Positions 8,390-58,233 of a stretch of DNA of 58,233 nt are shown in pieces. Under the pieces are notes generated by a model. That model had not been told where the DNA came from. It saw only the letters and a list, made by a program, of their open reading frames with translations, and ran no database searches. The DNA lies in IMG/VR virus record IMGVR_UViG_3300021379_002051, positions 1 through 58,233 of that record. One strand, written 5' to 3'. Positions within the stretch are counted from its first letter, which is position 1. Every line of letters starts with the position of its first letter. A program made the position numbers and the translations under genes. The DNA comes from a virus. Lineage: Duplodnaviria > Caudoviricetes.

Positions 8390-8404
8390 AATTATTTGTA
8401 CTCT

Positions 8405-21200: not shown

Positions 21201-22826
21201 AACAGTTTCACCAGGCATTAGCGCAACGTCAACTAGGCCTCCTGCTGCATACTTAGTAACAAGTCCTCCACTAGCTTTACCTTTTAATTCTTTACCAAAA
21301 CCTTTGGCAAAACCGAATCCTGCTCTTAAGCCTTTGCCGGCCAAAAGAACACCAAGCACAGGAAGTACGCCTTTCACACTATCAGCTATTTGTATCAATG
21401 CGCTTGCAAGATCTAATGCACTCTTGGTAATAGCTTTAAAGCTATCAGTACCTCCTATCTCTCTAATGAGACCAAGAAACTCTTCCCTAACCTTGGATAT
21501 TTGATTAGACAATGATAGTTGAGCAGTGGCCGCGTCCTCTGCTAACGAACCCTGACCGGCTTGAGCAACAGCAAGTGCTTTTTGTGCGGTTGCAAATTGT
21601 TGTATTAAAGGAATAACCTTACCAATCTGTCTGAAACCGCCAAGCTCTTCAACAAGTGTAGAAAATTTAACATCTCTGGGATCTAATTGATTTAACCCCT
21701 GGGAAAGTAATTGAATTGCTTTATAGGCTCCAACAAATTTACCATCTACATCTGTTAATGTGATACCAAACTCTTTAAGAGCTTCAATGGTAGAACCTCT
21801 TTGGATTCTGGTAAAAATAGTTCTCAAACCAGTAGCAATAGTTTCTGCGCTTTCACGAGTAGTAGCTCTGACGCTAGTAAAAACAGCAACAAATTCATTT
21901 AAAGCGTCTGTGCCTTCACTGACTCCACGACTAGCAGCGGCAAATACACCACCAGTACGCTGAATCGCAGCAATAATATCACCTGCTTCAACAGCAAAAC
22001 TAGCAGCTACGGCGTTGACGGAACCTAAGGCTTTTTCTAGATCGCCAGCAGAAATGCCAAACTGTCTCATTAACGCAATACTACCTTCGACAGTTCTGTT
22101 TAAGTCATCAAATGACGGAGCTAATGCACTAAGAGCCAAAGCCTTTAATGCCTTCTCTGTTTCTCTTGCAGACAAACCCGCTTGTGCTAATGTAGTAGAA
22201 ACAGAGATTAAATCGCTTGAAGCAACGCCAAGGCTTGTGGACAGATTAGTTATCTCGCTACTGATAGCTTTTAAACCATCAGCTGTTTTACCAGTTACCT
22301 GTTGTAGTCTTACTAATTGTCTATCGAACTCTATGAATTGTTTAAACGCTTGATTAATAGCATTAGTCAATGAAAAGACAGCGCTAGTTACCAAACTAAA
22401 AGCTGCAAATCTTTTGACAGCTAAAGCTGACTGTTTTCCGAAATCTTCCATCAGGGTAGTTGCTTTGGCCACTTGAGCGCCCGCCGCTTGTGCTTGTTTG
22501 CCGGTATTAGAAATATTTTGACTTACATTGGCGGTGCTAGAGGCAGCTTTAGTAGCTGCGGTGCTCATAGTATTAAATTGAGCAGCGATGCCTGATATGT
22601 TGGTGGAAACACTTTTGGAGGTTGCTTGTACTGATTTAAGAGTTTTGTTTAAACCAATAAGATTTCTGTTTATACTAGCTATATTTTTAGCACTATTAGG
22701 GTCTATAGTCAGGTTAACCGATGCCTTAACACCCTTAAGTTGTTTATTAATATTAGACACAACCTGTCTAACATTAGAAGGTCCCCTAAGATTTAGCTCA
22801 GCAGTTAGATTAAAGCCTTTGGCCAT
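12249..22826 (-). CDS. tail tape measure protein with inserted domains
   Basis: 3525 aa; TP901-type core (FDRQLVRLQQVTG..LAQAG..FAVEAGDI..ESAETIATGLRTIFTRI); Ala/Gln-rich helical stretches; GTDTVPAMLTPGEFV motifs. Confidence 0.9.
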   Translation of the reverse strand: MAKGFNLTAELNLRGPSNVRQVVSNINKQLKGVKASVNLTIDPNSAKNIASINRNLIGLNKTLKSVQATSKSVSTNISGIAAQFNTMSTAATKAASSTANVSQNISNTGKQAQAAGAQVAKATTLMEDFGKQSALAVKRFAAFSLVTSAVFSLTNAINQAFKQFIEFDRQLVRLQQVTGKTADGLKAISSEITNLSTSLGVASSDLISVSTTLAQAGLSARETEKALKALALSALAPSFDDLNRTVEGSIALMRQFGISAGDLEKALGSVNAVAASFAVEAGDIIAAIQRTGGVFAAASRGVSEGTDALNEFVAVFTSVRATTRESAETIATGLRTIFTRIQRGSTIEALKEFGITLTDVDGKFVGAYKAIQLLSQGLNQLDPRDVKFSTLVEELGGFRQIGKVIPLIQQFATAQKALAVAQAGQGSLAEDAATAQLSLSNQISKVREEFLGLIREIGGTDSFKAITKSALDLASALIQIADSVKGVLPVLGVLLAGKGLRAGFGFAKGFGKELKGKASGGLVTKYAAGGLVDVALMPGETVVSPEVVKKIGVGTLNRMNKADKMAKGGLAKVPGTGRADSFYTQIPAKSYVIRTDATNALGDKTISDIASGRQKFADGGQTKKTQQGKQVGGVGVFDSDMIGAGSKQILNAIRSSGKPYSVISGPAGSGKTTFATRKFGKNFIRSAADIEKYARFAVLSGAGATKTGDFSTEAQSLMSGAAQVIALQPSSEQVMSQRQQRIVDAESSGLPDTRSIGQLKGTMKAPTQIDSNLYKKFGNVQFVQKFDIGGEVKAGMVISEILDNKLGKVPISAKDVAFANPQVSPLASGSIAKLYAAPTGNKIQIGSASKLPLKDIEGIISRTVLGGSKTKTYNTEVAGVGEGQNEAFNSAIQKYTKEAIENSAKAWGRSANVSVSNVEFAEDFSIPGGQVGSMFEQMIQGLAGEPIASAASEDKRPFDFTNGLGRLVKRGDTGLFAIDEKIKYVDAKKGINSTQPSEFKKKISNQLAIEDFSKVQAAIQQRMNERTDSTKQQGVEGPTRDIPADLKTGVHSGSALAQRLSVKNSASAISKLGFEKSGKGWSYRQRKQASMAYGGEVPILAQEGEYVINRNSARSIGYGNLEKLNKYHSGGRVQKMAGGGKPKSNDRVGSLGLDGISGKITRASEFFIGALERFSGQLKADNIANADASIRQVTVFSGDLSAELQRNHAAHKRGAAAQTRINTEIAARIKSIRDSGLGYAEEQKYIKKLIKGIEQETAAAKKRLTITQKLSSSWTSLTGAISGATGALTGLASRFSRAKPPDSSAADAALAAAVQSQVKTSNASFARGVAGGFVPEGASVGGGATAAERAAASREAVDSGAATAWSPAVSAAMRGSPSATRSGRAGGTTMVPAQSPDIDVTKTQSSLDRLSSLATSVAVGLPLLSTAINGNREATTASEAANQSFTNGLATNLGVVTLVGSELRDLTKNVKGTKGRLLRFGAGVTTAVSAALAVGKAFVDASEASRKFKIESAKDKIEEGSETVKNTLEKLAKSGDPLSDELDNLDKALAASAAAAQEAAKNMGVQTQRASILQTLTEGVMGGGGDFGGGQQGAANRSIILQEKGTLAYLAVLGDTTKELKYMSELAPKIAKESSNVYAQSAKQFEDVLVARLKEGESLSDIMDSAAFDQNAEALARQNQAIEKQIVLIESDTRLGEGQKKALKDNIIALESQRVALEKAKQVNVELALKDLDNATKKLSYSFSRIMANMDEAIARSVSTLGQLDSAMQENIANMQGQATSGSSTGIQQLLDVISTPRAFSAQERQSSFSQATAGFGSSSDSISKVLEIGATLEDTILGAVNNAVANSADGTTEEKTGADVSSAVKQQLKNIGLPPGLSEKLSAEIGRQVATLRKEGDDNIDFSEIVEKVPAVGQALESFKTASQSVENRLKFLQSTFEQLSASTNELIGLQIDSNNRALNAQQIVINGYNALSQALGRNTSLAQKRYAIESKITSRTGGSTDPAQIRRNITNLSDQKTNLESGKAAAQAAGDVGTVQEFEKQIKQTSVSLNENVMALKDMAENTDLASAALGQIEQAQQKQRAGIGIIEKLVTSTPKQLNELNQSALRLSRNMSGVANFGTTSEQRGQDLELFNMIAPLLGDQAEPLKANVLQSMLQQSGVGVTPMFQQILDTMRNPQADPVQAEAIKTYQDAIQKQSEANVELANINNNLANDIANQTQKGIEAAIKNSVVRFDDKQITDLISGINNPGADQPAPVPAVGIATGGLIYKADGGNVNTIFKPKGTDTVPAMLTPGEFVVNKASTQKHLPLLQSINKSKGGDVSYYAEGGTVGGYKTNWAKENEDDQDRQNVSRSPIPYINPKIFDELSEGAIFGSKGNYVPVYGGNFDYTAHFLKRVSKSSSQEDVEKVLKNEQMNLLGSPAPALIGWKIGDPPFTQASLQEAGLFTGGDKVPKWKTQQPLPSSQGFDNLGGGIPINTDGTVPQISPGATDLYYDDKIQRVGPEGYPGTSPDLAMPYYSIQGQKSLAEAAINKYQAISKKLNSLQFVKKTNDLVPANNVKFLQPGNGKIPFYTKSGGYGPFGRLNDRDQYDGLVVLPQLQGNQPTPTNGTTKVNTFGEVNSGDSTFFGNKVRIPGHVGIGPQTITSPDTTGYQDPAKLTQQILTAQNDVESIKSTLDSYAGDPGFFDSISTSKAANTNLGNRLKNLESGSLGSVYTTIGTDNLNKEWKSKTKGDSLALFIEGIRDKWNETIGKFDAQQKRDADAIGAYGDGARVGGTSYLWSGAKLAANFVSKYFAGEDRTQKETAAELPAGFKIGEKQLQSFDLTSVFADIGPGLGSKNITGAFNAQEFEMPSYTQANKYSGVGDSLKGVMISDGMNYDTTLNPFDGTALAGKTLYFKDLAAAQEKFRSYYDALAAAYDKENNIFANEPGITGLMELKGINPDIAAINLDPVIAKNAKEKIPLEGNTLLQDSLIKLKERYLSQVGGEAITGKSATIDPKTKGQDWLDLGVIQDIVRGVVIPYARNIVAMGGRLPNIGSIDGLGAFAEYVSQGADYIGSRARSATDMPAIIFGQLKALGEIFSLISQNKKQEVLSKLGLPATMSDGETPPVLKDAASMTMAIQKYGQFLTQQGALSLGGDATALNQPVDQNYKINGQSIADIFKSGKVELAEVDAATGSFTSSQASEAQAPKDLKSVGKLVLNPYNVLPSGVRQAFTDNLVNTLMQARFMNAAEAVKNVGSYLAKQDNFLLDETNAAQSPAAEDAALKTANQYLLLLTNGVLGLIPDNEKLQQIKAARAQRQKEQEVQTKARGGLIYASNGTLVNFQPQGTDTVPAMLTPGEFVINRQSTQKHLPLLKAINNAGSSGLSSSQAIQRFATGGIVQPKYYQDAGMVSGGNAVMKPVPLKIEQKSINDAKTAISSAITEGAKTLSGVLSGVNILENSESFVNAISSFTRSVNNIVSNLASINLPEQIQFTGNVQVNLTGANNLTEAAESIVNNAIRKAFGDLGVANEGSIVIPQQFK

Positions 22827-43381: not shown

Positions 43382-45406
43382 CTATTTTCTGTATACCCCG
43401 CCATAAATATTATCTTCATTAACGGCGGATGTAAACCATGCTGGCCCTTTATACATCTCACCTTTATGAGATACCATATTTCTAGTATCGCCTCCTACAA
43501 CATCATATTCGACCGAAGGCATACTATTTCTGATTTGTCTCGCTAGCATATTAGCTATAACTAGAGAACTATATCGGTCTTTTCTTAGTCTTCCTTTTTT
43601 ACCGTTTTCTAACTTCACTTCTGGGGTGTCCCATCTGTCTCTAGCATTAGGACCATTACTAGTTTGAGACATGACTATTGTGGTAAGTTCATTTTTAAGC
43701 TCTTCTATTTCCAGTATGCAAGTTGTCAATGTGTCGTGTAAGAGATCTACATCATCTACCTCAACATTTTGTCCACTTTCTGCCATAGATAAACCTATGC
43801 TAAGATTATCAAAAAACGGAAATAATAATAATTTGTCCTCTAAATCTTTTCTTAGTCCATGATTAGCCTGAGATGTCCAGTCAGCTTTGGCAAATTGCAC
43901 TAAATCTAAAATATGTAAACCTGCTTGATTATCGGAATCTCTACTTTTACCATCTTCTATAGATGGCCACAGCGGTAATTCTCCTTCTTGTATCTTTGAA
44001 GGATCATGTAAAGCTTCTTCGATAGCAATGCCTCCTCCCTGTGCATCCATACCTATTCTTACAGGAGGAAATATTTTCATCAGATCACGAATTTTTCTAG
44101 CGCAGAATCCGTAAAAATCATGATCGTTAGTAATACCGACTTTATTTCTCACTCTAAAGTTTGCTCTATTTGTTGTCCAACAATATACTATGCGAGAATG
44201 ATCGGGATGACACTCTAATATGACAATACTAAAATTATCTTTCTCTGAAGCTGGGTCAATGCCGTATATGTATTCTAGTTTAGGATCACCTTTAATTTTT
44301 GCCTCAAACCATATATCTCGACCATTAATTTGAATAGTATTATTGTTAGATATAACACAGCTTTCTATCAAACTTCTTTTGAAAAAACCACGGCTGTCAT
44401 TTACAAAACATGCAGCATATTCCATGTTATATATTCCAGAATGTATAGTAGCTTTGGCTCTTGCAACCTGTTTGTCATCCATAAAACCTTTGGGTATTAA
44501 TTCATAAGGAACCCTGATTACTGAATAATCTTTCCAGTTAAAATTTTCAGGAACCTCTCCCTTAAAGATCTTAGACAGTTTAGTGTGATCTCCACCACTC
44601 TCAATAATGGATTTATATCTATTCCAATACTGTGCGAAGTGTTTAAAACCATAATCAGCAGTACCGCTAATAATGGCTTGATTACCATTTTTCTTGGATA
44701 AAATATCTAATTCCTCTGTCCACAAACCAGCATCAATCAATGCCTGTCTTTTAGCCTGTGCTTTTACATTTTCTATAGGGCTTGCACTAACAGCAGCAAA
44801 ACCCGCTACTACAGTTTCGTAGATTTCGGGAGACATAGATGCAAATTCATCGGCTATGATTATATGGGCTCTAAGGCCTCTAATTTTACTACCATCGCCC
44901 ATTGGGATAGCTATAGTCCAACTGTCTCCCAATCTTAAAGTACATCTGTCCACATCTCTTCTTGGACCATCTTCATTGCCGCTAAAAATACTTCTTAATA
45001 TAGGACTATTACGCCAAATATTTTCCATATACTCAAAAAGAATTTTACTCTGTCTGAACCCGGCACCAACCACCACGATTTTAGTGCCGGGAACAAATGA
45101 GCACTTCAATATGCAATATAAGCTCATCAAAAAAGATTTACCAAAACCACGACTAGCTATAAACATAGGAAAAGGTCTGTGCCAAAACTCTTGTAATATA
45201 GCCACTTGTATAGGATGTAATTCTATACCAAATAGCATTTTACAAGTTGCACCCAGATATTCTGTTTGCCTCATAATTTTTAACAAATGCTTATCTGGAT
45301 GCTCTATGTCATCTTTGGACCTATTTACCATCAGATTTTTCTTTATATCTAATGTAGATAAGTCTCCAAGTCCTAACCAAGCATTTTCATATATCAAATT
45401 AGCCAT
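43382..45406 (-). CDS. terminase large subunit
   Basis: Walker A ASRGFGKS, Walker B IRGLRAHIIIADEF, coupling ISGT, nuclease YGIDPA and KDRYSS. Confidence 0.92.
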   Translation of the reverse strand: MANLIYENAWLGLGDLSTLDIKKNLMVNRSKDDIEHPDKHLLKIMRQTEYLGATCKMLFGIELHPIQVAILQEFWHRPFPMFIASRGFGKSFLMSLYCILKCSFVPGTKIVVVGAGFRQSKILFEYMENIWRNSPILRSIFSGNEDGPRRDVDRCTLRLGDSWTIAIPMGDGSKIRGLRAHIIIADEFASMSPEIYETVVAGFAAVSASPIENVKAQAKRQALIDAGLWTEELDILSKKNGNQAIISGTADYGFKHFAQYWNRYKSIIESGGDHTKLSKIFKGEVPENFNWKDYSVIRVPYELIPKGFMDDKQVARAKATIHSGIYNMEYAACFVNDSRGFFKRSLIESCVISNNNTIQINGRDIWFEAKIKGDPKLEYIYGIDPASEKDNFSIVILECHPDHSRIVYCWTTNRANFRVRNKVGITNDHDFYGFCARKIRDLMKIFPPVRIGMDAQGGGIAIEEALHDPSKIQEGELPLWPSIEDGKSRDSDNQAGLHILDLVQFAKADWTSQANHGLRKDLEDKLLLFPFFDNLSIGLSMAESGQNVEVDDVDLLHDTLTTCILEIEELKNELTTIVMSQTSNGPNARDRWDTPEVKLENGKKGRLRKDRYSSLVIANMLARQIRNSMPSVEYDVVGGDTRNMVSHKGEMYKGPAWFTSAVNEDNIYGGVYRK

Positions 45407-48553: not shown

Positions 48554-49205
48554 TTAGCATCTCTTGTATATGTTTCTGTAATTTATCTAAATACTTTTTA
48601 CTAATTTTAGATCCGTGTTTAAGTTTTAGATAATGCTCCCTATATTCTTTAGAAATATTATTGTCTATATATTCTAATATCTCCTTATCCTCTATAAAAG
48701 ATAAGCTTAAGTTATCATCGTTAATTATATTATGATCTGAAATATGATTAAGCTGCATAATATTTTTCTTAGATTCATTTCTTTCATGCCAAGACCTATA
48801 CTCTTTGCACGATAATTTATCATTAAATTTCGTACATTGATTTGAGCTTTGTTTTAGATGCTTATCATAAAAAGGACAGGATTTGCAAGGTAAATCAGGT
48901 CTCTGATAATTGTTCCTTTTAAAATTAAACAACCTGTTTCTGACATGAGTCCATAGAAAGTTTTCTAATGGTCTGACTCCATCATATTTTTCTAATCCTT
49001 CTAGTGCAAAAATAGCAGCTTGTTGCTTCATGTCTTCAATATCATGATATCCAAATTTAAACTTATAGCTTAATTTTTTGGATATTTTATTCCAAACATT
49101 AACAAATTCTTCATCTGAAACTTTAACCTGCTTATTGTCCGGATTCTGGTCCGGATTCTTGTTCTTTGTCTGTTTCTGTTTCTTCTTGGCTTTGTTTTGA
49201 GTCAT
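48531..49205 (-). CDS. sigma-70-family region-2-like factor (putative late sigma)
   Basis: DIEDMKQQAAIFALEGLEKYD..LENFLWTHVRNRLFN; Cys-rich insert. Confidence 0.7.
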   Translation of the reverse strand: MTQNKAKKKQKQTKNKNPDQNPDNKQVKVSDEEFVNVWNKISKKLSYKFKFGYHDIEDMKQQAAIFALEGLEKYDGVRPLENFLWTHVRNRLFNFKRNNYQRPDLPCKSCPFYDKHLKQSSNQCTKFNDKLSCKEYRSWHERNESKKNIMQLNHISDHNIINDDNLSLSFIEDKEILEYIDNNISKEYREHYLKLKHGSKISKKYLDKLQKHIQEMLNDYQKKK

Positions 49206-49311
49206 TCAATAAAGATGCTATGCTTTTTCCTTCGGGTTTATGTAAATCTTCCCCAACATCTATGTCTGATACGATATTTAATATGCTGCCTGTTAATTGT
49301 GCTTGCTTCAT
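49132..49311 (-). CDS. possible 59-aa protein
   Basis: Hand-translated MKQAQLTGSILNIVSDIDVGEDLHKPEGK...; preceded by the RGTGTAT motif; overlaps the next ORF by 74 bp. Confidence 0.4.
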   Translation of the reverse strand: MKQAQLTGSILNIVSDIDVGEDLHKPEGKSIASLLNDSKQSQEETETDKEQESGPESGQ

Positions 49312-49391
49312 AATGTAACTTGCCTTTTGTTAAGGTTCTACTATAATAATACACCGGTTTATAAAATTGTCAATGTATCCCAGAGACTATC

Positions 49392-49595
49392 ATGAAATAT
49401 AAAAAATGGAATAATCAAGAACTAGATTTCATCAAAAATAATTTTACAGTTATGTCTGATGCTGATCTGGCTCAAAGACTAAGCAAAGAAAATGAAAAAA
49501 TTACTGTATATATGATTAGAAGACAGCGCAGAAGTATACAGGCTAATAAAAAAAGAGGAAGACCCAGAAAAACAAATAACAATGATAATCAATGA
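49392..49595 (+). CDS. small DNA-binding protein (HTH plus AT-hook-like)
   Basis: KWNNQELDFIK..SDADLAQRL..RRQR..KKRGRPRK. Confidence 0.7.
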   Translation: MKYKKWNNQELDFIKNNFTVMSDADLAQRLSKENEKITVYMIRRQRRSIQANKKRGRPRKTNNNDNQ

Positions 49596-50106
49596 TTTGA
49601 TATCTATTTTTCAGTACTGTCTGATAATTTTTGCATTCATATCCATAATAATGATTATGATTTATAGCAATGCTTATTATTATACAATAATGTCCTATAT
49701 ATATCAACACAGCATATTCAACACTATCAATAATGGTCTACAATTCAGTCATGCCTGGAACCATTTTGGAGGACCGTCTATGCCGTTCGACGTATCAATA
49801 AAAGCTATTATTTATCAGGATGAAAAGAGATACGAGATTGTTTTATATGATCCTGCCACAAACACGACTTGGCAAAATAAAAAAATCAATGTGCTAGATG
49901 CTAAGTGGTTTGAATATGTGAAAAACGGTAATCAAGATGCAGTGAAAGCATTATATAATTATTTACAAAGACTGTATCGTACTGATCGCATACAAATACA
50001 GGCACACTTTCAGCCAATGAAAGGTTTTCATGCTATAAATTACCAACATCAAGGTTTTGTACATGATATAAATATACAACAAGAAGGTGGTCAAGACGCT
50101 CATTAA
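49582..50106 (+). CDS. membrane-anchored SdpA/DUF5819-like protein
   Basis: N-terminal TM; GLQFSHAWNHFGGP recalls the W.MFAP motif; upstream of HTTM gene. Confidence 0.45.
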   Translation: MIINDLISIFQYCLIIFAFISIIMIMIYSNAYYYTIMSYIYQHSIFNTINNGLQFSHAWNHFGGPSMPFDVSIKAIIYQDEKRYEIVLYDPATNTTWQNKKINVLDAKWFEYVKNGNQDAVKALYNYLQRLYRTDRIQIQAHFQPMKGFHAINYQHQGFVHDINIQQEGGQDAH

Positions 50107-50134
50107 CCAGCAGCCATAGAAGGAAACACCGTGG

Positions 50135-51034
50135 ATGTTTGAGATAAACGATATTTATGATTTGTTGCTACTACTAGTAGATAACACAAAATATTTTTTA
50201 TTTGAGCCAACTATGTCTACTACTACAGGACTGGCTAGAATCATGATAGCCATTGCAAATATAATATTACTTATGGAATATCGTGATAGAACAGATAGGT
50301 ATCTTAGTACAGCTAGTGTTGCTACATTTCCTAAAGTACATATAAAATATGTAGATTTGCTTGTGTGGGATAGATGGAATAACTGTAATGCTAATAGTTT
50401 TATTATATTTGGTATTTTATGTAGTATAAGTTTCATGGTTGGTTTTTGCTCTAATATATGCGCCCTGTTATTGTATATAGTATCTTTGTCTACGTATAGT
50501 AGAAACTATCTGATAGAAAACGCAGGTCACTGTCAAATGAGAGCAATGCTGCTGCTCATGATATTTAGTAGATGTGGAGATGCTTTATCACTGGACACAA
50601 TAATACAAAATAAAAATTTTATAGGATCTATGGGAGAACCTTGGTGTGATAGATTTATGCAAGTTTTTATAGCGCTAATGTACTATAAAACTATTACATA
50701 TAAAATGATTAGTGGACCATCCTGGTGGAAAGGAGAAGTATTAAGCTATGCTCTTAACTCATTAGAGTTCGGTAAATATTCTCAACATTTTACATTTCCC
50801 AGATGGTTATGTATTATGGGATCATACTATACAATAGCTACACAAAACGCCCTAGTGTATCTAATATGGTTTAAAGAATTTAGGTATTATGTGTTGATCA
50901 ACTCTATGCTACATCATGCTATGATGCTTATGCTTATGAAACTAGGAGCTTTTCCTATTGTTGCTATTAGTTGCTTGAGTGTTTTTGTTCCTTCAGATGA
51001 TCTGGCTAAATTTTTATCTAGATTTATACAATGA
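50135..51034 (+). CDS. HTTM-domain membrane protein (SdpB/vitamin-K-dependent carboxylase-like)
   Basis: Multi-TM; GLARI, SRNYLIENAG, GDALSLD, YK..GPSWWKGE, LIWFKEFR. Confidence 0.75.
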   Translation: MFEINDIYDLLLLLVDNTKYFLFEPTMSTTTGLARIMIAIANIILLMEYRDRTDRYLSTASVATFPKVHIKYVDLLVWDRWNNCNANSFIIFGILCSISFMVGFCSNICALLLYIVSLSTYSRNYLIENAGHCQMRAMLLLMIFSRCGDALSLDTIIQNKNFIGSMGEPWCDRFMQVFIALMYYKTITYKMISGPSWWKGEVLSYALNSLEFGKYSQHFTFPRWLCIMGSYYTIATQNALVYLIWFKEFRYYVLINSMLHHAMMLMLMKLGAFPIVAISCLSVFVPSDDLAKFLSRFIQ

Positions 51035-51300
51035 TAGTGATACTAGACGGATATTGTAAATTTTGCAGAAGGGTGGGCGAATATATGGGGAAATTTACGA
51101 AAATTGGTGATCTAACCGTATTGTATAGTGATATGGAAGATGCTAGGGGCTTAATGTATAAGTATGGTATGGGGGATAGTATTGATAATATAGTGGGAAT
51201 AGTGGGAAACTATAAGGTTGTAGAGGGTGTTTATTGTTGGATTGTAGAATTAATTAAAAGGAGATTGTGGGATGGGAAGAAGAATAGGAAGCAAGGATAA
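51031..51300 (+). CDS. DCC1-like thiol-disulfide oxidoreductase
   Basis: N-terminal VILDGYCKFC (DGxCxxC). Confidence 0.7.
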   Translation: MIVILDGYCKFCRRVGEYMGKFTKIGDLTVLYSDMEDARGLMYKYGMGDSIDNIVGIVGNYKVVEGVYCWIVELIKRRLWDGKKNRKQG

Positions 51301-52354
51301 GAAATCAAGGAAAAAGAAGGTGTTTGTTGATTCTGCACAGGAAAGACAAATTGTGTGTGACTATAATAATGGTATGAGTTCTGCAGACATAAGAAGTAAG
51401 TATGGGATTAGTAATAGTCAGTTGAGCAGAATAAGGGGGGATAGAGGGGTAAAGGTCAAACTAAGAAGAGATATTGTTGATAGTTGGGAGGTAGTAGGGG
51501 ATTTTAAAGACTATAAGGAAACTAGTGGTATATATGCTATATATTTTATCTGGAATTATGATAAAGAAGATCCTGATAAAAACCATAAAATCAATAATAT
51601 AAAAGCTTATATAGGTAGTAGTGTCAATATAGGACAAAGATTAATGGCTCATGATAATGAGTTAAAAAATAATAAGCATTTTAATAAAAATCTGCAGGAT
51701 AGATATAATGATTGTGAATTTTCTGTAAGGTATGCCATAATAGAAGAATGTGGTGAAGATGAGATTATGCAGAAGGAAGGGGGCTATCTTGATAGGTGGA
51801 ATATGGGGTGTCTTTTTAATACGTGGAAGGTTATTAAAAAAGAAGATATAGAGCCGTGGCTAGAAAAAGCTATAACCATGGATGCTTATGATAAAAACTA
51901 TACTATTAGCAAAACGAACTTCTATAATGGAACTGCTTGTAAAGAAACGAATAATGTGCATAAAAGCGGATATGGAAGAATGCAAACAACTATTGAAGGA
52001 GTTACGAAATATCTAGCAAAACATAGAGTAGCATACTGGCATAAGCATGGAGAATATGTTGAGTTGGTGAGACATATGTGTGATAATCCGAAATGTTTTA
52101 ATCCTGAGCATTTAGCAGCAGGGAATCATAGACAGAATAATTTGGATAGGCGAGGCGATTTTCCTGAAGAATTTGAAAGGAAATGGCTGGAGTGTAAAGG
52201 AGATGTGATAAAATTAACAGAAGAATTTGGATGGAAGGCTAACGCTAAACTAAAAGACGGAGGTGTAAGCTGTAGTGTTTATGAATGGGAGAAGAAGCTA
52301 GACTTAAGGAATAAGTATCCTGAAATCGTTAAGAACAGGGGCCTATTAAGATAG
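51272..52354 (+). CDS. GIY-YIG plus HNH homing-type endonuclease
   Basis: SGIYAI..AYIGSSVNIGQRL and KHRVAY..VRHMCDNPKCFNPEHL..GNHRQN. Confidence 0.8.
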   Translation: MGRRIGSKDKKSRKKKVFVDSAQERQIVCDYNNGMSSADIRSKYGISNSQLSRIRGDRGVKVKLRRDIVDSWEVVGDFKDYKETSGIYAIYFIWNYDKEDPDKNHKINNIKAYIGSSVNIGQRLMAHDNELKNNKHFNKNLQDRYNDCEFSVRYAIIEECGEDEIMQKEGGYLDRWNMGCLFNTWKVIKKEDIEPWLEKAITMDAYDKNYTISKTNFYNGTACKETNNVHKSGYGRMQTTIEGVTKYLAKHRVAYWHKHGEYVELVRHMCDNPKCFNPEHLAAGNHRQNNLDRRGDFPEEFERKWLECKGDVIKLTEEFGWKANAKLKDGGVSCSVYEWEKKLDLRNKYPEIVKNRGLLR

Positions 52355-52571
52355 TTTAGGTAATACTTTTTTATTTATATGTCCCTACTGTAATTGCACC
52401 CCGGTGCGTTTTTTATATGGTGGGGATACATCATAATATAATGAAAAAACCCCCCTATATGTAGATATATATGTAAAGTATTGATACGTATAGACTTATG
52501 TGATATACTGCCGGCCGACCCCCTCTGTGGTGGGGTGAACATTATTATACCATGCTAATGAGGGGGATGAT

Positions 52572-52619
52572 AGCAAACTGTGTGCCGAAACACAAAAAAC
52601 TTTTGGCACGATATTTGCA
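52572..52619. promoter_or_regulatory. back-to-back sigma-54 -24/-12 sites
   Basis: Minus TCGGCACACAGTTTGCT (52572-52588); plus TTGGCACGATATTTGCA (52603-52619). Confidence 0.7.
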
Positions 52620-52654
52620 GTAGAAAAAAAATAAAAAAATTTTTCAGAAAGTAC

Positions 52655-52683
52655 TTGACACCTGACGATACTAGGTATATACT
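52655..52683 (+). promoter_or_regulatory. sigma-70 promoter
   Basis: TTGACA-N17-TATACT. Confidence 0.8.
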
Positions 52684-52722
52684 TGAAGCATAACAAGCAA
52701 CCAAGAAAGAAAAGGAAAAGAC

Positions 52723-52917
52723 ATGAAAAAGTTTCTCTCATACTTCGAAGCAAACGGAATTCGCTACACTATCCTCAACAAGATGAGAATCTTTCTCTCA
52801 CAGAATAATCGAGTAGTTGCTGTTCAGCCTCAAGATGCTGTGCTGCAAAAGCCTTCACAAGATCCTCTGCTTGTTCGCTTTTGGCAGAATGAGTTGAATC
52901 GGGAATACGCCCGATAA
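52723..52917 (+). CDS. small early protein
   Basis: Promoter plus AAGGA RBS. Confidence 0.7.
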   Translation: MKKFLSYFEANGIRYTILNKMRIFLSQNNRVVAVQPQDAVLQKPSQDPLLVRFWQNELNREYAR

Positions 52918-52955
52918 AGTAACATATTTACACTACTACTAAAGAGGTACTCACT

Positions 52956-53147
52956 ATGGGTGGTTTCTATTCTAGCGACAAGCGTATCATGGGTTGGATC
53001 AGTGGTTGGATCGACAGGGGATCATCCCCCCATTATAGGGGTGTTCTTGCTGCTCAACTGCGACTGATTCGCAAGAAGCATGGTACCCTACTTGCGAGGG
53101 GGTATCGAGATCATATGCTCTGGATAGGTTCATACCCTACTAGGTAG
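52956..53147 (+). CDS. small early protein
   Basis: GAGGT RBS; 63 aa, basic. Confidence 0.65.
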   Translation: MGGFYSSDKRIMGWISGWIDRGSSPHYRGVLAAQLRLIRKKHGTLLARGYRDHMLWIGSYPTR

Positions 53148-53304
53148 GTTTACCCCCCAAAAGAATTACTAGCCGAACGTAAGTGCTTGGTAGATAAGGA
53201 CTTACGAGCGATTCGGCCGGCCGACCCCCACTGCAGGGGGGTATCACCTAAAGTATCTAGCTAGGGAAGCATACCACACCAAAGAGGGGTATCGCTATTC
53301 TGCT

Positions 53305-53321
53305 AGCAAACGCTGTGCCAA
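53305..53321 (-). promoter_or_regulatory. sigma-54 site
   Basis: TTGGCACAGCGTTTGCT. Confidence 0.75.
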
Positions 53322-53384
53322 ACGAGCAAAAAATGCCGGAAAGTTTTGTCAAATTTTCTTGACATAAAAATTCCAAAATTATTG

Positions 53385-53413
53385 TTGACAACTAAAGATT
53401 GCTTTGGTATAAT
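53385..53413 (+). promoter_or_regulatory. sigma-70 promoter
   Basis: Perfect TTGACA-N17-TATAAT. Confidence 0.88.
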
Positions 53414-53453
53414 GTCGATATAAGGAATAAGGAAGAAAGAAAAGGAGAAAAAA

Positions 53454-53600
53454 ATGGAAATGCAAATCCTCTACATTTCAGATTGCTGCGGTTCATATCT
53501 TGACGATACTCAGATTGAGTATGGTATCTGCAACGATTGCGGTGAGCATTGTGAAGTGCTAACCGAAGAATATCCTGCCACCCCCGTTTGTGGGGGTTGA
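53454..53600 (+). CDS. 48-aa Cys-rich (Zn-ribbon-like) protein
   Basis: Hand-translated MEMQILYISDCCGSYLDDTQIEYGICNDCGEHCEVLTEEYPATPVCGG; AAGGAG RBS. Confidence 0.75.
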   Translation: MEMQILYISDCCGSYLDDTQIEYGICNDCGEHCEVLTEEYPATPVCGG

Positions 53601-53652
53601 CAAACAAAAAACTTTTGGTAGACTGTTGGAAAGTAAGAAAGAGAGAAAGAAA

Positions 53653-53856
53653 ATGAAAACGATTGAAATTTCACCACGTTACGTTGACTATCAAAACTAC
53701 TTCCACGAGATGAGTGACGAGTTGCTCGCAGTGTGGATTGAAGTTGCAGAGCGTAGGCTTCCTACCTATCGTCGGAAGTCTGACTTGGTGTCCGTTGCTT
53801 TGGGTATCCGTGCTGCTAAAAGTGTTCAGCGTTTACGAGAAAGGAATTGGGAATGA
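53653..53856 (+). CDS. small early protein
   Basis: Start MKTIEI after TTGACA-N16-TAGACT (53597-53624). Confidence 0.7.
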   Translation: MKTIEISPRYVDYQNYFHEMSDELLAVWIEVAERRLPTYRRKSDLVSVALGIRAAKSVQRLRERNWE

Positions 53857-53938
53857 TCGTCTTGACCGTTGCTGTTTCGTTTGCTATACTGTTCTGCGGG
53901 TTCGCCGCCCTCTATCTCACCCTATAAGGAAAACCACA

Positions 53939-54262
53939 ATGAGTACCGAAAGCCTAATGGCACAGTTCCCAATTACTCGCAAGGCTTGGAATCAAGTTTC
54001 TGGAATCTGGAAAGGCATCGCCATCCCATGCGAAAAGAGTACCCCTAATGGTGGGGTTGTGCAGAGTGAAAAGGTTCTCAAGTTTACACGCTCGGCCTTG
54101 CGTGAATTGAGAATCACCAAGAAAGTTGATCCCCGTCTTATTGGGGGTGAGGATAGAATGATTGAAAAGGTAGGAAAGCCTGGCTCCCCCGAAAGGGTGG
54201 CTGCATTGGCTGCTCAATATGCTAGGTTGAGTGAAAGTGAATCATCCCCCTTTGGAGAGTGA
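53939..54262 (+). CDS. early hypothetical protein (107 aa)
   Basis: Start MSTESL with AAGGA RBS; TTGACC-N17-TATACT upstream. Confidence 0.7.
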   Translation: MSTESLMAQFPITRKAWNQVSGIWKGIAIPCEKSTPNGGVVQSEKVLKFTRSALRELRITKKVDPRLIGGEDRMIEKVGKPGSPERVAALAAQYARLSESESSPFGE

Positions 54263-54266
54263 AAGC

Positions 54267-54428
54267 ATGAACAGTACCAAACTGACCTATGTACAAGTGA
54301 ACAGCACCGGCGAGAAGCAGTGGGTAAAGGATACGTATGTTCAGGCCTACCCTAAGTTATATACGCCTGTGCAGTTCAAGGGTATCAAAATCCAGGCCGA
54401 GGTGAAGGATATCTATTCCCCTCGATAG
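54267..54428 (+). CDS. small early protein
   Basis: Start MNSTKL with GGAG upstream. Confidence 0.6.
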   Translation: MNSTKLTYVQVNSTGEKQWVKDTYVQAYPKLYTPVQFKGIKIQAEVKDIYSPR

Positions 54429-54590
54429 AGGGGGCCGGCCGGCCAAAATACTTGTAAGTTGTTGATATATAAGCACTTAGGTATACAACGTGCCGCCGAG
54501 CCCCGCCGATGGGGGGTATGGCTACTAGGATGGGTGGTATACATAGGTGTACCACCTAAGCCTACAGGCTAAGTGAACATAGGTACAGCC

Positions 54591-54607
54591 AGCAAACCCC
54601 GTGCCAA
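54591..54607 (-). promoter_or_regulatory. sigma-54 site
   Basis: TTGGCACGGGGTTTGCT. Confidence 0.75.
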
Positions 54608-54680
54608 ACGTACACAAAATTCCAGAAAGTTGTGTCAAAATTTCTTGACATAAAAAATCGAAAAAAACTTCAGAAGTCTA

Positions 54681-54709
54681 TTGACAAATGACGATAAGTA
54701 TGGTATACT
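54681..54709 (+). promoter_or_regulatory. sigma-70 promoter
   Basis: TTGACA-N17-TATACT. Confidence 0.8.
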
Positions 54710-54751
54710 TAACACATAAGAAAGAAAGTTGGAAAGAAAGAGAGTCTGAAA

Positions 54752-54955
54752 ATGGAAGATTATTCGAAACCGTTTGACATCATCGCCAATCTGCCCCGTA
54801 TTCGGAAACGGAAGATTTGGCAAGTTATCATCGACGATACTGTTGTTCAGTTGGTTGGTGCTACCGACAATCGCAAGGCTACTGCCGAGCGATATATCGC
54901 TGGTAAGTATCCAGACGTTCAGTTCACACTGAAATTTTTGGAATATCGCATCTAG
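54752..54955 (+). CDS. small early protein
   Basis: 67 aa downstream of promoter. Confidence 0.7.
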   Translation: MEDYSKPFDIIANLPRIRKRKIWQVIIDDTVVQLVGATDNRKATAERYIAGKYPDVQFTLKFLEYRI

Positions 54956-55026
54956 TCCCCCAGTGTGGGGGTTGACAAACGCAAAATCTTTGGTATAATG
55001 TTCGCAACAGAAAAAAAGGAGAAAAG

Positions 55027-55203
55027 ATGTTCAAAGCAATTGCAAAAGGATTCGACGGTTCGACTCACTACACTTCAGAGTTTCGCAACTACGCTGACGT
55101 TCTCAACTACGTTTTTGCGACTTTCATCGGTTGGGACGTTATTCGAGATATAGAAATTATCGACGCTCAGACTGGTGAGTTGGTTGACGTTGTAGAAAAT
55201 TGA
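55027..55203 (+). CDS. small early protein (58 aa)
   Basis: Hand-translated MFKAIAKGFDGSTHYTSEF...IIDAQTGELVDVVEN; AAGGAG RBS; TTGACA-N16-TATAAT at 54972-54999. Confidence 0.75.
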   Translation: MFKAIAKGFDGSTHYTSEFRNYADVLNYVFATFIGWDVIRDIEIIDAQTGELVDVVEN

Positions 55204-55278
55204 ACTGACCCCCACTAGGGGGGTTGACACGGCAGGAAAAATTTGGTAGAATTGGAAAATCAGAAAGAGAGAAAGAAG

Positions 55279-55470
55279 ATGAGAAAGCCTAGTTTCAAAA
55301 CCGTCGATAGCAAACTGTCCCACTACTGCCGCCGTTTCGGTATGCAGCTGTGGAACCACGGTGATGGCACATATTCATTGTACGATACAAAAATGCAGTA
55401 TCTGGTACTGAATCGTGTTGACCGTCGCCGTGTGGCAATTGAAGTGTACGCATGTTTCAACAACTGCTGA
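55279..55470 (+). CDS. small early protein
   Basis: Start MRKPSF after TTGACA-N17-TAGAAT (55224-55252). Confidence 0.7.
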   Translation: MRKPSFKTVDSKLSHYCRRFGMQLWNHGDGTYSLYDTKMQYLVLNRVDRRRVAIEVYACFNNC

Positions 55471-55653
55471 TCAGTTGTTCACCTATTGCTAGCCAAACGT
55501 AAGTGCTTGGTAGATAAGGACTTACGAGCGATTCGGCCGGCCCGCCCCCACCTTTGGGGGGTACAGTGCCTAGAAGGGGTGGCGTACATAGGTGTACCAG
55601 CTAAGCCTACAGGCTAGGTCAACATAGGCATAGCCAGCCAATTTGGGGGTATG

Positions 55654-55670
55654 AGCAAACTTCATGCCAA
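55654..55670 (-). promoter_or_regulatory. sigma-54 site
   Basis: TTGGCATGAAGTTTGCT. Confidence 0.75.
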
Positions 55671-55802
55671 ACGAGCAGAAAATCTCCAAAAGTTGTGTCA
55701 AAATTTCTTGACATAAAAATGCAGAAAAATCTCTTGACAATTCAAGTTTCACCTGGTAAAATGTCGATATAAGAAGTAAGGAAAGAACGAAAGGAAAAGA
55801 AA

Positions 55803-56030
55803 ATGATGTTCGCAAGCAGGACTGAAATCCAAGACCATATCCAAGACCGTTCAGCCGGCTGGTATGATCAACTGGTGAACGACGGTTCAGTAAGCCCCGA
55901 GCTACTAGCCGATGCTATCGATAATGATGGCGAACTTGAAATCGGCTACGATTTTGGTACGCTCACTATCGACAGTGAAGGGTACATCACCGCTTGGGAT
56001 GCTCTCAACACTGACTGGTATGAGGACTAA
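55803..56030 (+). CDS. small acidic early protein
   Basis: 75 aa; TTGACA-N17-TAAAAT at 55734-55762. Confidence 0.7.
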   Translation: MMFASRTEIQDHIQDRSAGWYDQLVNDGSVSPELLADAIDNDGELEIGYDFGTLTIDSEGYITAWDALNTDWYED

Positions 56031-56119
56031 AAAAATCCAAAAAAATACTTGACAAGCTCAAGTTCATCTGATAAAATGTCGATATAGAAAGTAAGGAAGA
56101 AAGAAAGAGAGAGTGAAAG

Positions 56120-56296
56120 ATGAGTAAGTATCAAATGTTCAGTACCTATCGTCGCCATGATGGCGGTTACTTTGAATGCTACAAGAACGATGAGTATCTT
56201 GGTAACGTGTACGCTAGTACAGAGAAGGCTGCAAGGTATAAAGCCTTCAAGTTGTTTGGTGTTTGGTGCAATGTTTATTGGCAAGATGGAGAATGA
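56120..56296 (+). CDS. small early protein (58 aa)
   Basis: Hand-translated MSKYQMFSTYRRHDGGYFECYKNDEYLGNVYA...; TTGACA-N17-TAAAAT at 56049-56077. Confidence 0.7.
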   Translation: MSKYQMFSTYRRHDGGYFECYKNDEYLGNVYASTEKAARYKAFKLFGVWCNVYWQDGE

Positions 56297-56541
56297 ACAT
56301 GAAAAAGCCTGAGTTTAAAACTAAATTCAAAAGTGTTCGTGATGAAATCATGGCTCTTGAGTGTGAGCAAGAATCAGAATCTGGTGGGTTAGAGTTTCAA
56401 GAAGCAGTCCGTTGGCGACTTGCTCAACTTGAAAATGATTATTGGGAAGATGATGAACCAGAAGAAGAGTTTGTTGTTAGGAAAAAGAAAAAGTCGAAAT
56501 GTTATAGTAGGTTCAACGGTGGTTGGATGTTTGTGGATTGA
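56293..56541 (+). CDS. small early protein
   Basis: ATGA overlap with the previous ORF. Confidence 0.65.
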   Translation: MNMKKPEFKTKFKSVRDEIMALECEQESESGGLEFQEAVRWRLAQLENDYWEDDEPEEEFVVRKKKKSKCYSRFNGGWMFVD

Positions 56542-56550
56542 GGAGAAAAG

Positions 56551-56733
56551 ATGAAAACTAAACTTTACCATTCGGAAACTGTACCGCCTTCACACAAGGA
56601 ATGCCCAACGGGTTACTGTAGAACAGAAAACGGGTTTTGGACTTATTCAAGAAGAGCGGCTCGTGATTATCGCTTCTTTCGTCTGAATGGTGGTTGGATG
56701 TTTGTGGATATGAGGAAGCAAGATGAAAAGTAA
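56551..56733 (+). CDS. small early protein
   Basis: GAGGAG RBS. Confidence 0.65.
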   Translation: MKTKLYHSETVPPSHKECPTGYCRTENGFWTYSRRAARDYRFFRLNGGWMFVDMRKQDEK

Positions 56734-56891
56734 ACTTGACAATGACGGCCTGGCCGTTATACTGTTTCTTATGGTGTGTGTTGTGGTAATATTTATGGAA
56801 AGATTAGGGTAAGGGATAGTCCCCTCTTTGGTGGGGGCCGGCCGGCCGAGTCGGCCATAAGTCCTTACGCCCCAATGACTTACGATCACAG

Positions 56892-56908
56892 AGCAAATTC
56901 TGTGCCAA
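56892..56908 (-). promoter_or_regulatory. sigma-54 site
   Basis: TTGGCACAGAATTTGCT. Confidence 0.75.
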
Positions 56909-56995
56909 AAAAGAAAATAATTTTTCCAGATTTTTTCTCTTGACATTCAAGTTTGCTGTGGTAGAATTCCGATATAGAAAGTAAGGAGAACAAAA

Positions 56996-57301
56996 ATGAA
57001 GGCACACAACCCACGAATCGTTTGCAAAGATGGTTTCAGTATCAGTGTTCAGGCCCGTGAGACTGCATACTGCACGCCACGAAGCGACCACGGCCCATAC
57101 TCGCATGTAGAGTGTGGATACCCTAGCGAGGTTCCAAAGAGTTGGACATTTCGGGAATTCTCGGAAGCCGCCCAATTTGGCAAGGGTTATCCAAAGGATG
57201 AAGAATACACGGACACGGTATATCCGTATGTTCCGGTTGATCTTGTTCGGCATGAGTTGGATTTGCATGGTGGAATTGTTGAAGGAAGGTTGCCAGAATA
57301 G
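56996..57301 (+). CDS. phage hypothetical protein
   Basis: RIVCKDGFSISVQA..YCTPR..VECGYPS..VYPYVP; AAGGAG RBS; TTGACA-N16-TAGAAT at 56940-56967. Confidence 0.75.
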   Translation: MKAHNPRIVCKDGFSISVQARETAYCTPRSDHGPYSHVECGYPSEVPKSWTFREFSEAAQFGKGYPKDEEYTDTVYPYVPVDLVRHELDLHGGIVEGRLPE

Positions 57302-57312
57302 GAGAGATTGAA

Positions 57313-57477
57313 ATGGCTTGTATCCAGATGATTGTTGAGTTGACAATTCGTGACCCCAATTATCCAGAGGGGGATGAGCGTAATACTCGGGTAATAAGGA
57401 ACGGAACTTGTTTCTCTGCCACGCCAGAGTGGCAATGGTTGATTGATGCTGGGTTTGCAGTTTGGTACTATGTTTAG
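57313..57477 (+). CDS. small early protein (54 aa)
   Basis: Hand-translated MACIQMIVELTIRDPNYPEGDERNTRV...; AGGAG RBS. Confidence 0.6.
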   Translation: MACIQMIVELTIRDPNYPEGDERNTRVIRNGTCFSATPEWQWLIDAGFAVWYYV

Positions 57478-57487
57478 GGAGAATGAA

Positions 57488-57622
57488 ATGACTGAGTATG
57501 ATGAGGGATATGAGGATGGATACCATGATGCTTGGGATGAACTTGAGGCATGGTATGGTATAGATGATATGGGTTGGGATTGGTATGTGGTGGGTGAGGA
57601 TGAGTATGAGACCGTGGATTGA
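57488..57622 (+). CDS. 44-aa acidic/aromatic peptide
   Basis: MTEYDEGYEDGYHDAWDELEAWYGIDDMGWDWYVVGEDEYETVD; GGGAG RBS. Confidence 0.6.
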   Translation: MTEYDEGYEDGYHDAWDELEAWYGIDDMGWDWYVVGEDEYETVD

Positions 57623-57836
57623 TGAGGGGCCTTGGCTTGATGAGTATGGTTGGATACTGGCCGTATGCTATCATGTAACATTTACTATTATGTTTACTAG
57701 ACTAATGTTCAGTGATAAACGTAAGTAATTGAAAATAAAGGACTTACGAGCGGCGAGGCCGGCCGGGCCCCTCGGCTGGGGGGTTGACCCACTTGTATTA
57801 CCTAAGCCTGCCGGCTAAGGCTTAGATGGTATAGCC

Positions 57837-57853
57837 AGCGAAAACCGTGCCAA
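57837..57853 (-). promoter_or_regulatory. sigma-54 site
   Basis: TTGGCACGGTTTTCGCT. Confidence 0.65.
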
Positions 57854-57937
57854 ATAAAAATTATTTTTTCCTATAGTTTAGCCGGCCGAATGTCGATATA
57901 TAAAGTATTGGCAAGGATAACCCACGGAGAATGAAAG

Positions 57938-58099
57938 ATGATGACGCTCTACACGATTTTTGGAATGTTCGTTGGTTTCGAGGGATACGATAATGGCAAG
58001 GTTTATTTTGGGATTTATACCCCCCAATATGAGTATGGGTATGTGGTTACGCCGAACGAGATTTATCTGGACACAATTTTGGAAAAAACTCAAGATTAG
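57938..58099 (+). CDS. small early protein (53 aa)
   Basis: Hand-translated MMTLYTIFGMFVGFEGYDNGKVYFGIYTPQYEYG...; GGAG RBS. Confidence 0.6.
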   Translation: MMTLYTIFGMFVGFEGYDNGKVYFGIYTPQYEYGYVVTPNEIYLDTILEKTQD

Positions 58100-58169
58100 G
58101 GGTTGACTTGGCCGATCTAAGGAGTATAATTCGGGAATGACACGCAACCAACACCACGGAGGCTTGAAA

Positions 58170-58233
58170 ATGGACGATATCAACACCACTCTCTTGATTG
58201 CTTCTCTTGAGGCTGAAGGAATCGTTGAACCTT
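58170..58233 (+). CDS. partial early ORF
   Basis: MDDINTTLLIASLEAEGIVEP...; GGAGG RBS; TTGACT-N16-TATAAT at 58103-58130. Confidence 0.55.
   Translation, partial: MDDINTTLLIASLEAEGIVEP

Follow-up and report, generated by a model that had tools for sequence, protein, structure and literature searches.

The window analysed here, the whole of IMG/VR virus record IMGVR_UViG_3300021379_002051 (58233 bases, linear; CheckV completeness 39%), is a fragment of an uncultured tailed phage. Structural genes, including those for tail-fibre-like proteins, occupy positions 1–49.2 kb on the minus strand, plus-strand genes follow from 49.5 kb onward, and from 52.4 kb to the end of the record runs a succession of small open reading frames (ORFs) of 44–107 residues. 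We infer that this small-gene region, with its sigma-70-like promoters, is the early region. Its six intergenic modules each carry an asymmetric 16-bp element resembling the -24/-12 promoters read by sigma-54 (RpoN), and it is this sigma-54-like unit, its arrangement and its probable reader that are described below.

The motif GGCAY-N5-TYGC has seven matches in the window compared to 1.03 expected (at least seven matches in 0 of 100 shuffles), all of them confined to 52572–57853, and the stricter TGGCAY-N5-TYGCT has five matches compared to 0.14 expected. Each intergenic module has one unit on the minus strand, six in all; the seventh unit, on the plus strand of module 1, stands ahead of genes. 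These counts bear out the original prediction, made from the letters of the window, of seven sigma-54 consensus sites with six antisense. The consensus it gave, T(T/C)GGCAY-N5-T(T/C)GCT, accommodates the copy at 52572, which reads CGGCAC, but does not hold for the plus-strand copy, which ends in TTGCA and not TTGCT. Every copy is of near-consensus quality. The units are as follows (here and below L and G numbers name relatives, the lineage loci being IMG/VR sequences fetched around the large terminase, TerL):

52572..52587, minus strand (leftward): sigma-54-like unit of module 1, CGGCACACAGTTTGCT
52604..52619, plus strand (rightward): sigma-54-like unit of module 1, TGGCACGATATTTGCA, its start 51 nucleotides (nt) ahead of the -35 hexamer
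53305..53320, minus strand: sigma-54-like unit of module 2, TGGCACAGCGTTTGCT, at the left edge of the block homologous to L020
54591..54606, minus strand: sigma-54-like unit of module 3, TGGCACGGGGTTTGCT
55654..55669, minus strand: sigma-54-like unit of module 4, TGGCATGAAGTTTGCT; its L020 orthologue has the same arms but a different spacer
56892..56907, minus strand: sigma-54-like unit of module 5, TGGCACAGAATTTGCT, its start 48 nt ahead of the -35 hexamer
57837..57852, minus strand: sigma-54-like unit of module 6, TGGCACGGTTTTCGCT, with no intact sigma-70-like promoter after it

Ten plus-strand sigma-70-like promoters scoring 11–12/12 lie in 52.6–58.1 kb, and all such promoters of the region are on the plus strand. 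In five of the modules a promoter of this score follows the unit on its right (-35 hexamers at 52655, 53385, 54681, 55734 and 56940), which agrees with the five back-to-back promoters, and a sixth unclear case, that had been described earlier. The sixth module (57837) has none; GGCCGGCC occupies the expected -10 place, and an overlapping CCGGCC replaces the -10 element.

52655..52683, plus strand: sigma-70-like promoter of module 1, TTGACA-17-TATACT
53385..53413, plus strand: sigma-70-like promoter of module 2, TTGACA-17-TATAAT, 12/12, TG-extended
54681..54709, plus strand: sigma-70-like promoter of module 3
55734..55762, plus strand: sigma-70-like promoter of module 4
56940..56967, plus strand: sigma-70-like promoter of module 5

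Read from left to right, a module begins with the end of the previous small-gene cluster and the inverted repeat CGTAAGT...ACTTACG, followed by GGCCGGCC and a C5-N6-G5/6 hairpin that has no T run, with two more hairpins in three of the modules. Next come the leftward sigma-54-like unit, a TGTCAA-N6-TTGACA palindrome (modules 2–4) and an A/T-rich stretch. The right part is composed of the TG-extended sigma-70-like promoter, the conserved GTCGATATA and a leader rich in purines that includes a Shine-Dalgarno sequence. The positions of the main accessory elements are:

53178..53206: inverted repeat CGTAAGT...ACTTACG, left of the module 2 unit, with copies at 55498–55526 and 57720–57748
53215..53243: GGCCGGCC followed by a C5-N6-G6 hairpin, module 2
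53347..53364: palindrome TGTCAA-N6-TTGACA, between unit and promoter in module 2, with copies at 54633–54650 and 55696–55713; kept in L035, L080 and L057

The module region holds repeat families D1–D13. GGCCGGCC has seven matches at five places (53215–57764) compared to 0.14 expected, is found in modules 2–6 only and is always adjoined by the C5/G5 hairpin. Modules 2–4 are paralogous, sharing 61–77% identity over 152 nt, and the six window copies of the unit are therefore not independent of one another.

In the fetched lineage loci the syntenic region upstream of TerL is where the units concentrate, and in complete relatives (187–200 kb) the motif is limited to a few kb, which is the enrichment that a genome-wide scan had been proposed to look for:

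G001 (199884 bp): 7 matches, all inside 58903–62263
G002: 4 matches, inside 6916–8581
G003: 0 matches
G004: 2 matches, scattered

A logo built from 146 unique instances reads TTTGGCAY-RNN-ATTTGCT, with a variable centre. When the spacer length was scanned over the lineage loci, N5 gave 111 matches and N2, N3, N4, N6, N8 and N9 gave 0–4 each; the 18 matches with N7 all come from one orthologous coding site. The orthologous modules of the window and L020 likewise share the arms of the unit and differ in its spacer bases. The GG-N10-GC spacing, whose loss from homologous modules had been named as grounds for abandoning the sigma-54 assignment, is thus kept, with N5 near-exclusive and the spacer bases free to vary. 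These comparisons suggest that the arms and their exact spacing are under selection and that the spacer is not.

The homology between the window and L020 starts exactly at the unit and covers the promoter; left of the unit the two sequences are unrelated, which indicates that the unit forms the left edge of a shuffling promoter cassette. The unit is also optional. Loci L063 and L072, for example, have CGTAAG elements and promoters but no unit at all. The unit is therefore dispensable, and the CGTAAG elements, being retained where there are no units, are not dedicated enhancers. As a separate observation, in L034 and L042 (for example L042, reverse complement, 16020–16100) two copies of the palindrome CTGCCAAAATGGCAG, about 30 bp apart, adjoin the unit and take the place of the CGTAAG palindromes of the window.

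In most relatives the units stand in arrays of two to four copies with alternating orientations, such as the four-unit array of L028 (236–340). Among 24 unique neighbour pairs, 20 alternate and 4 have the same orientation. The alternating pairs comprise 10 convergent pairs, with starts 18–20 bp apart (8 of them at 19 bp), and 10 divergent pairs, at 23–24 or 31–34 bp. Since convergent starts are only 18–20 bp apart, the predicted start of each convergent unit would fall inside the site of its neighbour. A reading of the convergent pair as a hairpin was rejected on the grounds that the N5 spacers of the paired units are non-complementary. The antisense orientation that had been stressed for the window (six of seven units on the minus strand) is correct there and is no rule for the lineage, whose members carry both orientations alternating.

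The distance to the promoter is similarly constrained. Of 133 unique sigma-70-like promoter matches, 33 have units within 220 nt upstream, and the nearest unit starts 45–53 nt ahead of the -35 hexamer in 22 of these 33 (10 forward, 12 reverse) and at 80–90 nt in 5 more. The A/T-rich sequence between unit and promoter varies among cassettes, whereas the distance is constant. A unit placed in this way sits at roughly -70 to -90 relative to the start, a position typical of upstream activators or repressors, and the tight 19- and 23–24-bp offsets of the alternating arrays suggest protein–protein contacts. Both features would suit an operator whose likeness to the sigma-54 signature arose by coincidence or convergence and through which another DNA-binding protein, an early phage product or a regulator of the host, controls the neighbouring sigma-70 promoters. 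Candidates abound, the early region encoding many uncharacterised small proteins, with a Pfam family found for 0 of the 17 ORFs tested. We nevertheless regard an operator of this kind as rather unlikely, as chance is very unlikely to produce a bipartite motif that equals the sigma-54 consensus at 14 positions, and for further reasons that emerge from unrelated viruses.

To ascertain how far the arrangement extends, we searched for the convergent double unit with the pattern TGGCAY-N5-TTGCW-N3-WGCAA-N5-RTGCCA. It is present in 118 IMG/VR stretches; the 80 of these that were listed form the basis of the component, GC (guanine plus cytosine) and neighbour analyses. These 80 stretches fall into 39 blastn components, that is, DNA-unrelated groups, with GC contents of 33–66%; 21 are from the lineage of the window, 17 from a second lineage and the rest are mostly singletons. 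Several viral stretches carry arrays of 6–8 alternating units, L193 for instance one of eight units at 418–596. Replacing N5 by N4 or N6 inside each unit of the pair gave 0 and 0 IMG/VR stretches. By contrast, the bacterial and archaeal genomes, 596 Gb in all, contain the convergent double unit in 4 stretches, at least 2 of which are small contigs resembling viral ones, apparently phage contigs binned into metagenome-assembled genomes (MAGs). With only 4 stretches in 596 Gb of cellular genomes the arrangement appears to be virus-specific, and if the 2.9 million viral contigs average no more than 50 kb, its density in viruses is at least a hundredfold above that in cells.

No protein family within 4 kb of the arrays is common to more than 5 of the 39 components. 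The same N5 unit thus recurs across groups that share neither DNA, base composition nor a conserved neighbouring gene, and phage regulators normally change specificity between lineages, which argues further against an operator of a phage or host regulator other than sigma-54. That the unit, not a palindrome, is what is read follows from the isolated single units of the window, which keep both arms. The recurrence in unrelated viruses, the empty N4 and N6 controls, the rigid spacing and the conservation of the arms while the spacer diverges also make it the least probable of all the explanations considered that the units are functionless passengers in duplicated promoter cassettes, even though some relatives lack units and the paralogy of modules 2–4 is in favour of that explanation.

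The neighbour family found beside arrays in the most groups is TerL, at 5 of 39. Arrays of the second lineage immediately precede two genes, the second of which encodes a large terminase (PF03237, PF17289) only remotely related to the TerL of the window; a T7-like contig has them between its genes for DNA polymerase and DNA ligase. Placement beside the terminase raises the question of whether the arrays are packaging recognition sites for a small terminase, as lambda cosB is, the sites of which are also 16 bp long and occur in both orientations, or else replication-origin iterons. A single cluster beside the terminase is what the second lineage has. In the window, however, the units stand singly, over six cassettes across 5.3 kb and 7–12 kb from TerL, not in one cluster beside the terminase or genome end; packaging and initiator proteins are lineage-specific while the motif is not; and iterons are as a rule repeated in one direction, unlike these scattered units, of which 20 of 24 neighbour pairs alternate. 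We consider a packaging or iteron role very unlikely.

Two further features of the array-bearing loci were noted. In L199, a second-lineage locus, a run of about 30 T (4100–4135) lies between a solitary unit and a putative small-terminase gene. In several further viral lineages (loci L175, L182, L197, L198, L200, L224, L231, L243 and also L291) the array adjoins a palindrome, for example gaatgattatcattatc or aatgagaatgattctcatt, that resembles a Fur box. A second host-regulator site beside the array would fit either a decoy or a host-sensing region.

What, then, reads the unit? The -24 GG and -12 GC elements (TGGCAC-N5-TTGCW) are present in the seven window units, and motif and spacing place the unit, as a sequence element, in the sigma-54 -24/-12 class. 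Sites bound in vivo in Salmonella, as tabulated from chromatin immunoprecipitation (ChIP), include TGGCACAGATTTCGCTTT (glnA), TGGCATAGCCTTTGCTTT (prpB) and TGGCACATCCTTTGCAAT (glnK) (PMC3844500), and window units such as TGGCACGGTTTTCGCT and TGGCACAGCGTTTGCT match the bound sites of that table. In E. coli, the sigma-54 signature is reported as the motif in 135 of 145 ChIP-seq peaks (PMC4591121). The earlier identification of the sites as RpoN -24/-12 elements is strengthened by the kept arms and GG-N10-GC spacing and by their recurrence in many DNA-unrelated viral lineages. An asymmetric 16-bp site with one rigid spacing, identical at GC contents of 33–66% and found without a conserved neighbour gene, points to a universal, conserved reader, as sigma-54 is. 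From these sequence comparisons, sigma-54 is probably the reader of the unit.

The reader would be that of the host, because neither the sigma-54 DNA-binding domain nor the activator domain was found in the phage records searched. Specifically, a domain search found no Sigma54_DBD in the window and four complete relatives, and the activator domain PF00158 had no match in the four complete relatives or in five records from other lineages (two of them complete). A phage-encoded bacterial enhancer-binding protein, which the original prediction had proposed to look for, was thus not found in nine phage records. A phage-encoded reader was also sought by presence and absence in 24 array-positive and 7 array-negative loci, which yielded only broadly conserved early proteins that occur in the negative loci too. 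Readings of the unit as a site for IHF, lambda CII (TTGC-N6-TTGC) or as a T4 MotA box were rejected on spacing or key positions. Four RNA-library runs from related phages provided assembled contigs that carry neither strand nor ends. These contigs cover the early genes and some bridge units (56871–57025 and 57754–57915; X18), and their cover is low over the intergenic modules, which also diverge, making it uninformative on transcription.

Alone among bacterial sigma factors, sigma-54 binds DNA stably without transcribing; its holoenzyme forms a stable closed complex on such sites and does not fire without an ATPase activator. Because such a complex cannot fire unaided and the examined phages encode no activator, we propose that the units act by being occupied. 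They would be binding sites for the host sigma-54 holoenzyme, or for sigma-54 itself, placed at the upstream edge of the mobile early-promoter cassettes of this lineage, in which they are optional. Occupied sites may park or soak up scarce sigma-54, together with the attached polymerase, on phage DNA, and/or may set up a protein barrier that separates an early transcription unit from the promoter that follows it; the production of RNA would not be their chief task. The decoy and the roadblock, both raised in the original prediction, are thereby the uses we favour. To the statement as a whole, that these are sigma-54 docking sites in early cassettes acting mainly by occupancy, we assign a probability of roughly 0.4, occupancy in place of transcription being held less firmly than sigma-54 as the reader.

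The obvious competitor is that the units are working sigma-54 promoters. Antisense RNA made from leftward units would then collide with the early operon upstream or silence it, and rightward units would serve as a second promoter in tandem with sigma-70, fired by a host activator or an unrecognised phage activator on the palindromes. The consensus match and spacing are as good for this reading as for occupancy, rightward units are common in relatives, and palindromes flank the units in the window lineage (CGTAAG-N2-CTTACG, or the two CTGCCAAAATGGCAG copies 30 bp apart). Moreover, of eight intragenic sigma-54 sites of Salmonella reported as tested, four were able to act as promoters (PMC3844500). 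Set against this are the nine phage records in which PF00158 was not found, the convergent units 18–20 bp apart, which cannot both be productive, and the CGTAAG elements that remain in relatives without units. Nor do the leftward units of the window have anything evident to express. None is followed by a credibly starting ORF of at least 30 residues, as the original prediction had stated, and there is no terminator-like site on the minus strand within about 500 nt of them and no conserved element downstream. A search of 49000–58233 found no Rfam family, with one sub-threshold chance match only. These results leave the proposal of promoters for small RNAs without support. Directional transcription is thus, in our view, unlikely. 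Occupancy fits better with what is seen: facing units are 19 bp apart, orientation can reverse without a change of position, the search for an activator was negative, there is nothing behind the units to be expressed, relatives can do without them and all copies are near-consensus.

Several observations weigh against occupancy by sigma-54. In L193 and L199, of two other lineages, the order is array, three lineage-specific palindromes, solitary forward unit and genes, with the solitary unit about 75 nt (L193) or about 430 nt (L199) ahead of the first gene, and this arrangement looks like a real enhancer-dependent promoter. Because of these solitary forward units, and of the plus-strand unit at 52604, the promoter reading stays in play. 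The 19-bp convergent spacing and the fixed promoter distance are what would be expected of a cooperative transcription factor, and two holoenzymes, given their footprints, could hardly fit face to face 19 bp apart. The positional regularity may in part be inherited, the cassettes being paralogous. Finally, a TerL-related contig is present in two MAGs, and a search for rpoN was positive in one and gave no match in the other (1.1 Mb, completeness not given), which is too weak a hint to name a host.

If sigma-54 docking by occupancy is nonetheless correct, a wider role may be entertained, albeit tentatively. Virulent phages of dozens of unrelated lineages might use sigma-54 site arrays as a protein-free takeover device that sponges sigma-54, or parks polymerase in dead-end closed complexes, and so switches off sigma-54-dependent host responses. 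In the lineage of the window the same sites might in addition place a polymerase-sized barrier at every early cassette edge.

The remainder of the window places the modules in their genomic setting. Two of its larger genes serve as landmarks:

43382–45406, minus-strand structural block: large terminase (TerL)
51272–52354, plus-strand gene region right of 49.5 kb: HNH endonuclease

TerL shares approximately 24–27% identity with proteins of Bacillus and Microcystis phages, its closest relatives in the cultured-phage collection, and IMG/VR contains 328 relatives of it, on contigs as long as 206 kb. The same collection gave 0 matches to a megablast of 52300–58233 and a tblastn of one 347-residue protein, and a BLAST of two arrays against it returned nothing usable. 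A 15-nt module word used to find relatives gave mostly single matches, apparently by chance. Searches found no replication initiator among the early ORFs tested, no psbA in the four complete relatives and no tRNA in the window.

Within the structural block, a 3525-residue ORF (12249–22826, minus strand) has as its sole Pfam match a tape-measure domain, PF10145, at residues 191–384 near the N terminus; if it is one protein, it would be an unusually long tape measure, implying a very long tail. The small-gene region (49000–58233) has a GC content of 41–46%, compared to 31–44%, mostly 33–39%, for the structural region (1–49000), and the GC skew changes sign at about 50 kb. A 299-residue protein (50135–51034, plus strand) matches the HTTM domain just below threshold (E 4.6e-06; 26.8 bits, with a cut-off of 27.7), and a locus search found no IMG/VR relatives of it. 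Two early proteins without a Pfam family recur in the lineage. One, of 48–80 residues (53454–53600, plus strand, in the window), has a zinc-ribbon-like motif, DCCG...C-x2-CGEHCE, and is lineage-wide, for example in L028, L034, L035, L010 and L014; the other, of about 107 residues (window 53939–54262), is kept across the lineage. In L028 a run of about 17 CA dinucleotides (~1470–1500) lies between two small early genes.

The early-promoter cassettes of these phages thus contain a conserved sigma-54 signature of rigid spacing, and arrays of that signature are common in viral contigs and almost absent from 596 Gb of cellular genomes. Should sigma-54 bind them, the units would point to an undescribed phage–host transcription interaction, in which they might serve as a DNA sponge or an insulator or use sigma-54 independently of an activator. 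To our knowledge, sigma-54 has so far been studied in connection with phages only as the target of phage inhibitors. Full-text searching, which leaves most subscription journals outside, found no description of sigma-54 site arrays in phages and turned up no natural phage-borne sigma-factor decoys.

Among known systems, the closest in sequence are the sigma-54 -24/-12 promoters such as glnAp2 and pspA, which have the same TGGCAY-N5-TTGCW motif and exact GG-N10-GC, as well as the rarer TTCGCT variant of glnA. Unlike these promoters, the phage units come from records in which no activator gene was found, and most have no gene or RNA behind them; they form convergent and divergent arrays 19–24 bp apart, lie upstream of sigma-70-like promoters and are nearly absent from cellular genomes. 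The R sites of lambda cosB are likewise 16-bp asymmetric sites in both orientations, and arrays adjoin terminase genes in some other lineages; in contrast to cosB, the window units are dispersed and far from TerL, and their motif is common to unrelated phages, which packaging sites are not.

Intragenic and antisense sigma-54 sites of Salmonella and E. coli have been proposed to act in repression, transcriptional interference or small RNA expression (PMC3844500; PMC4591121). As described there they are single, scattered and often below consensus, whereas the phage units are near-consensus and occur one per cassette or in arrays. In the architecture of the cassette the nearest likeness is to the PeSL cassettes of T4-type phages, described as a repeated intergenic hairpin and early sigma-70 promoter flanking small novel ORFs, with recombination breakpoints at the cassette edge (PMC2839356, PMC4122927). 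The window has the same combination, a repeated hairpin with a promoter and a homology breakpoint at the unit. It differs in that its phage is not T4-like (TerL is ~25% identical to those of Bacillus and Microcystis phages), and no sigma-54-like unit is apparent in the titles and abstracts on PeSL. In their proposed action, lastly, the units resemble transcription-factor decoy arrays, which, in synthetic and theoretical work, are clusters of high-affinity sites able to titrate a scarce DNA-binding protein (PMC7826281, PMC3322331).

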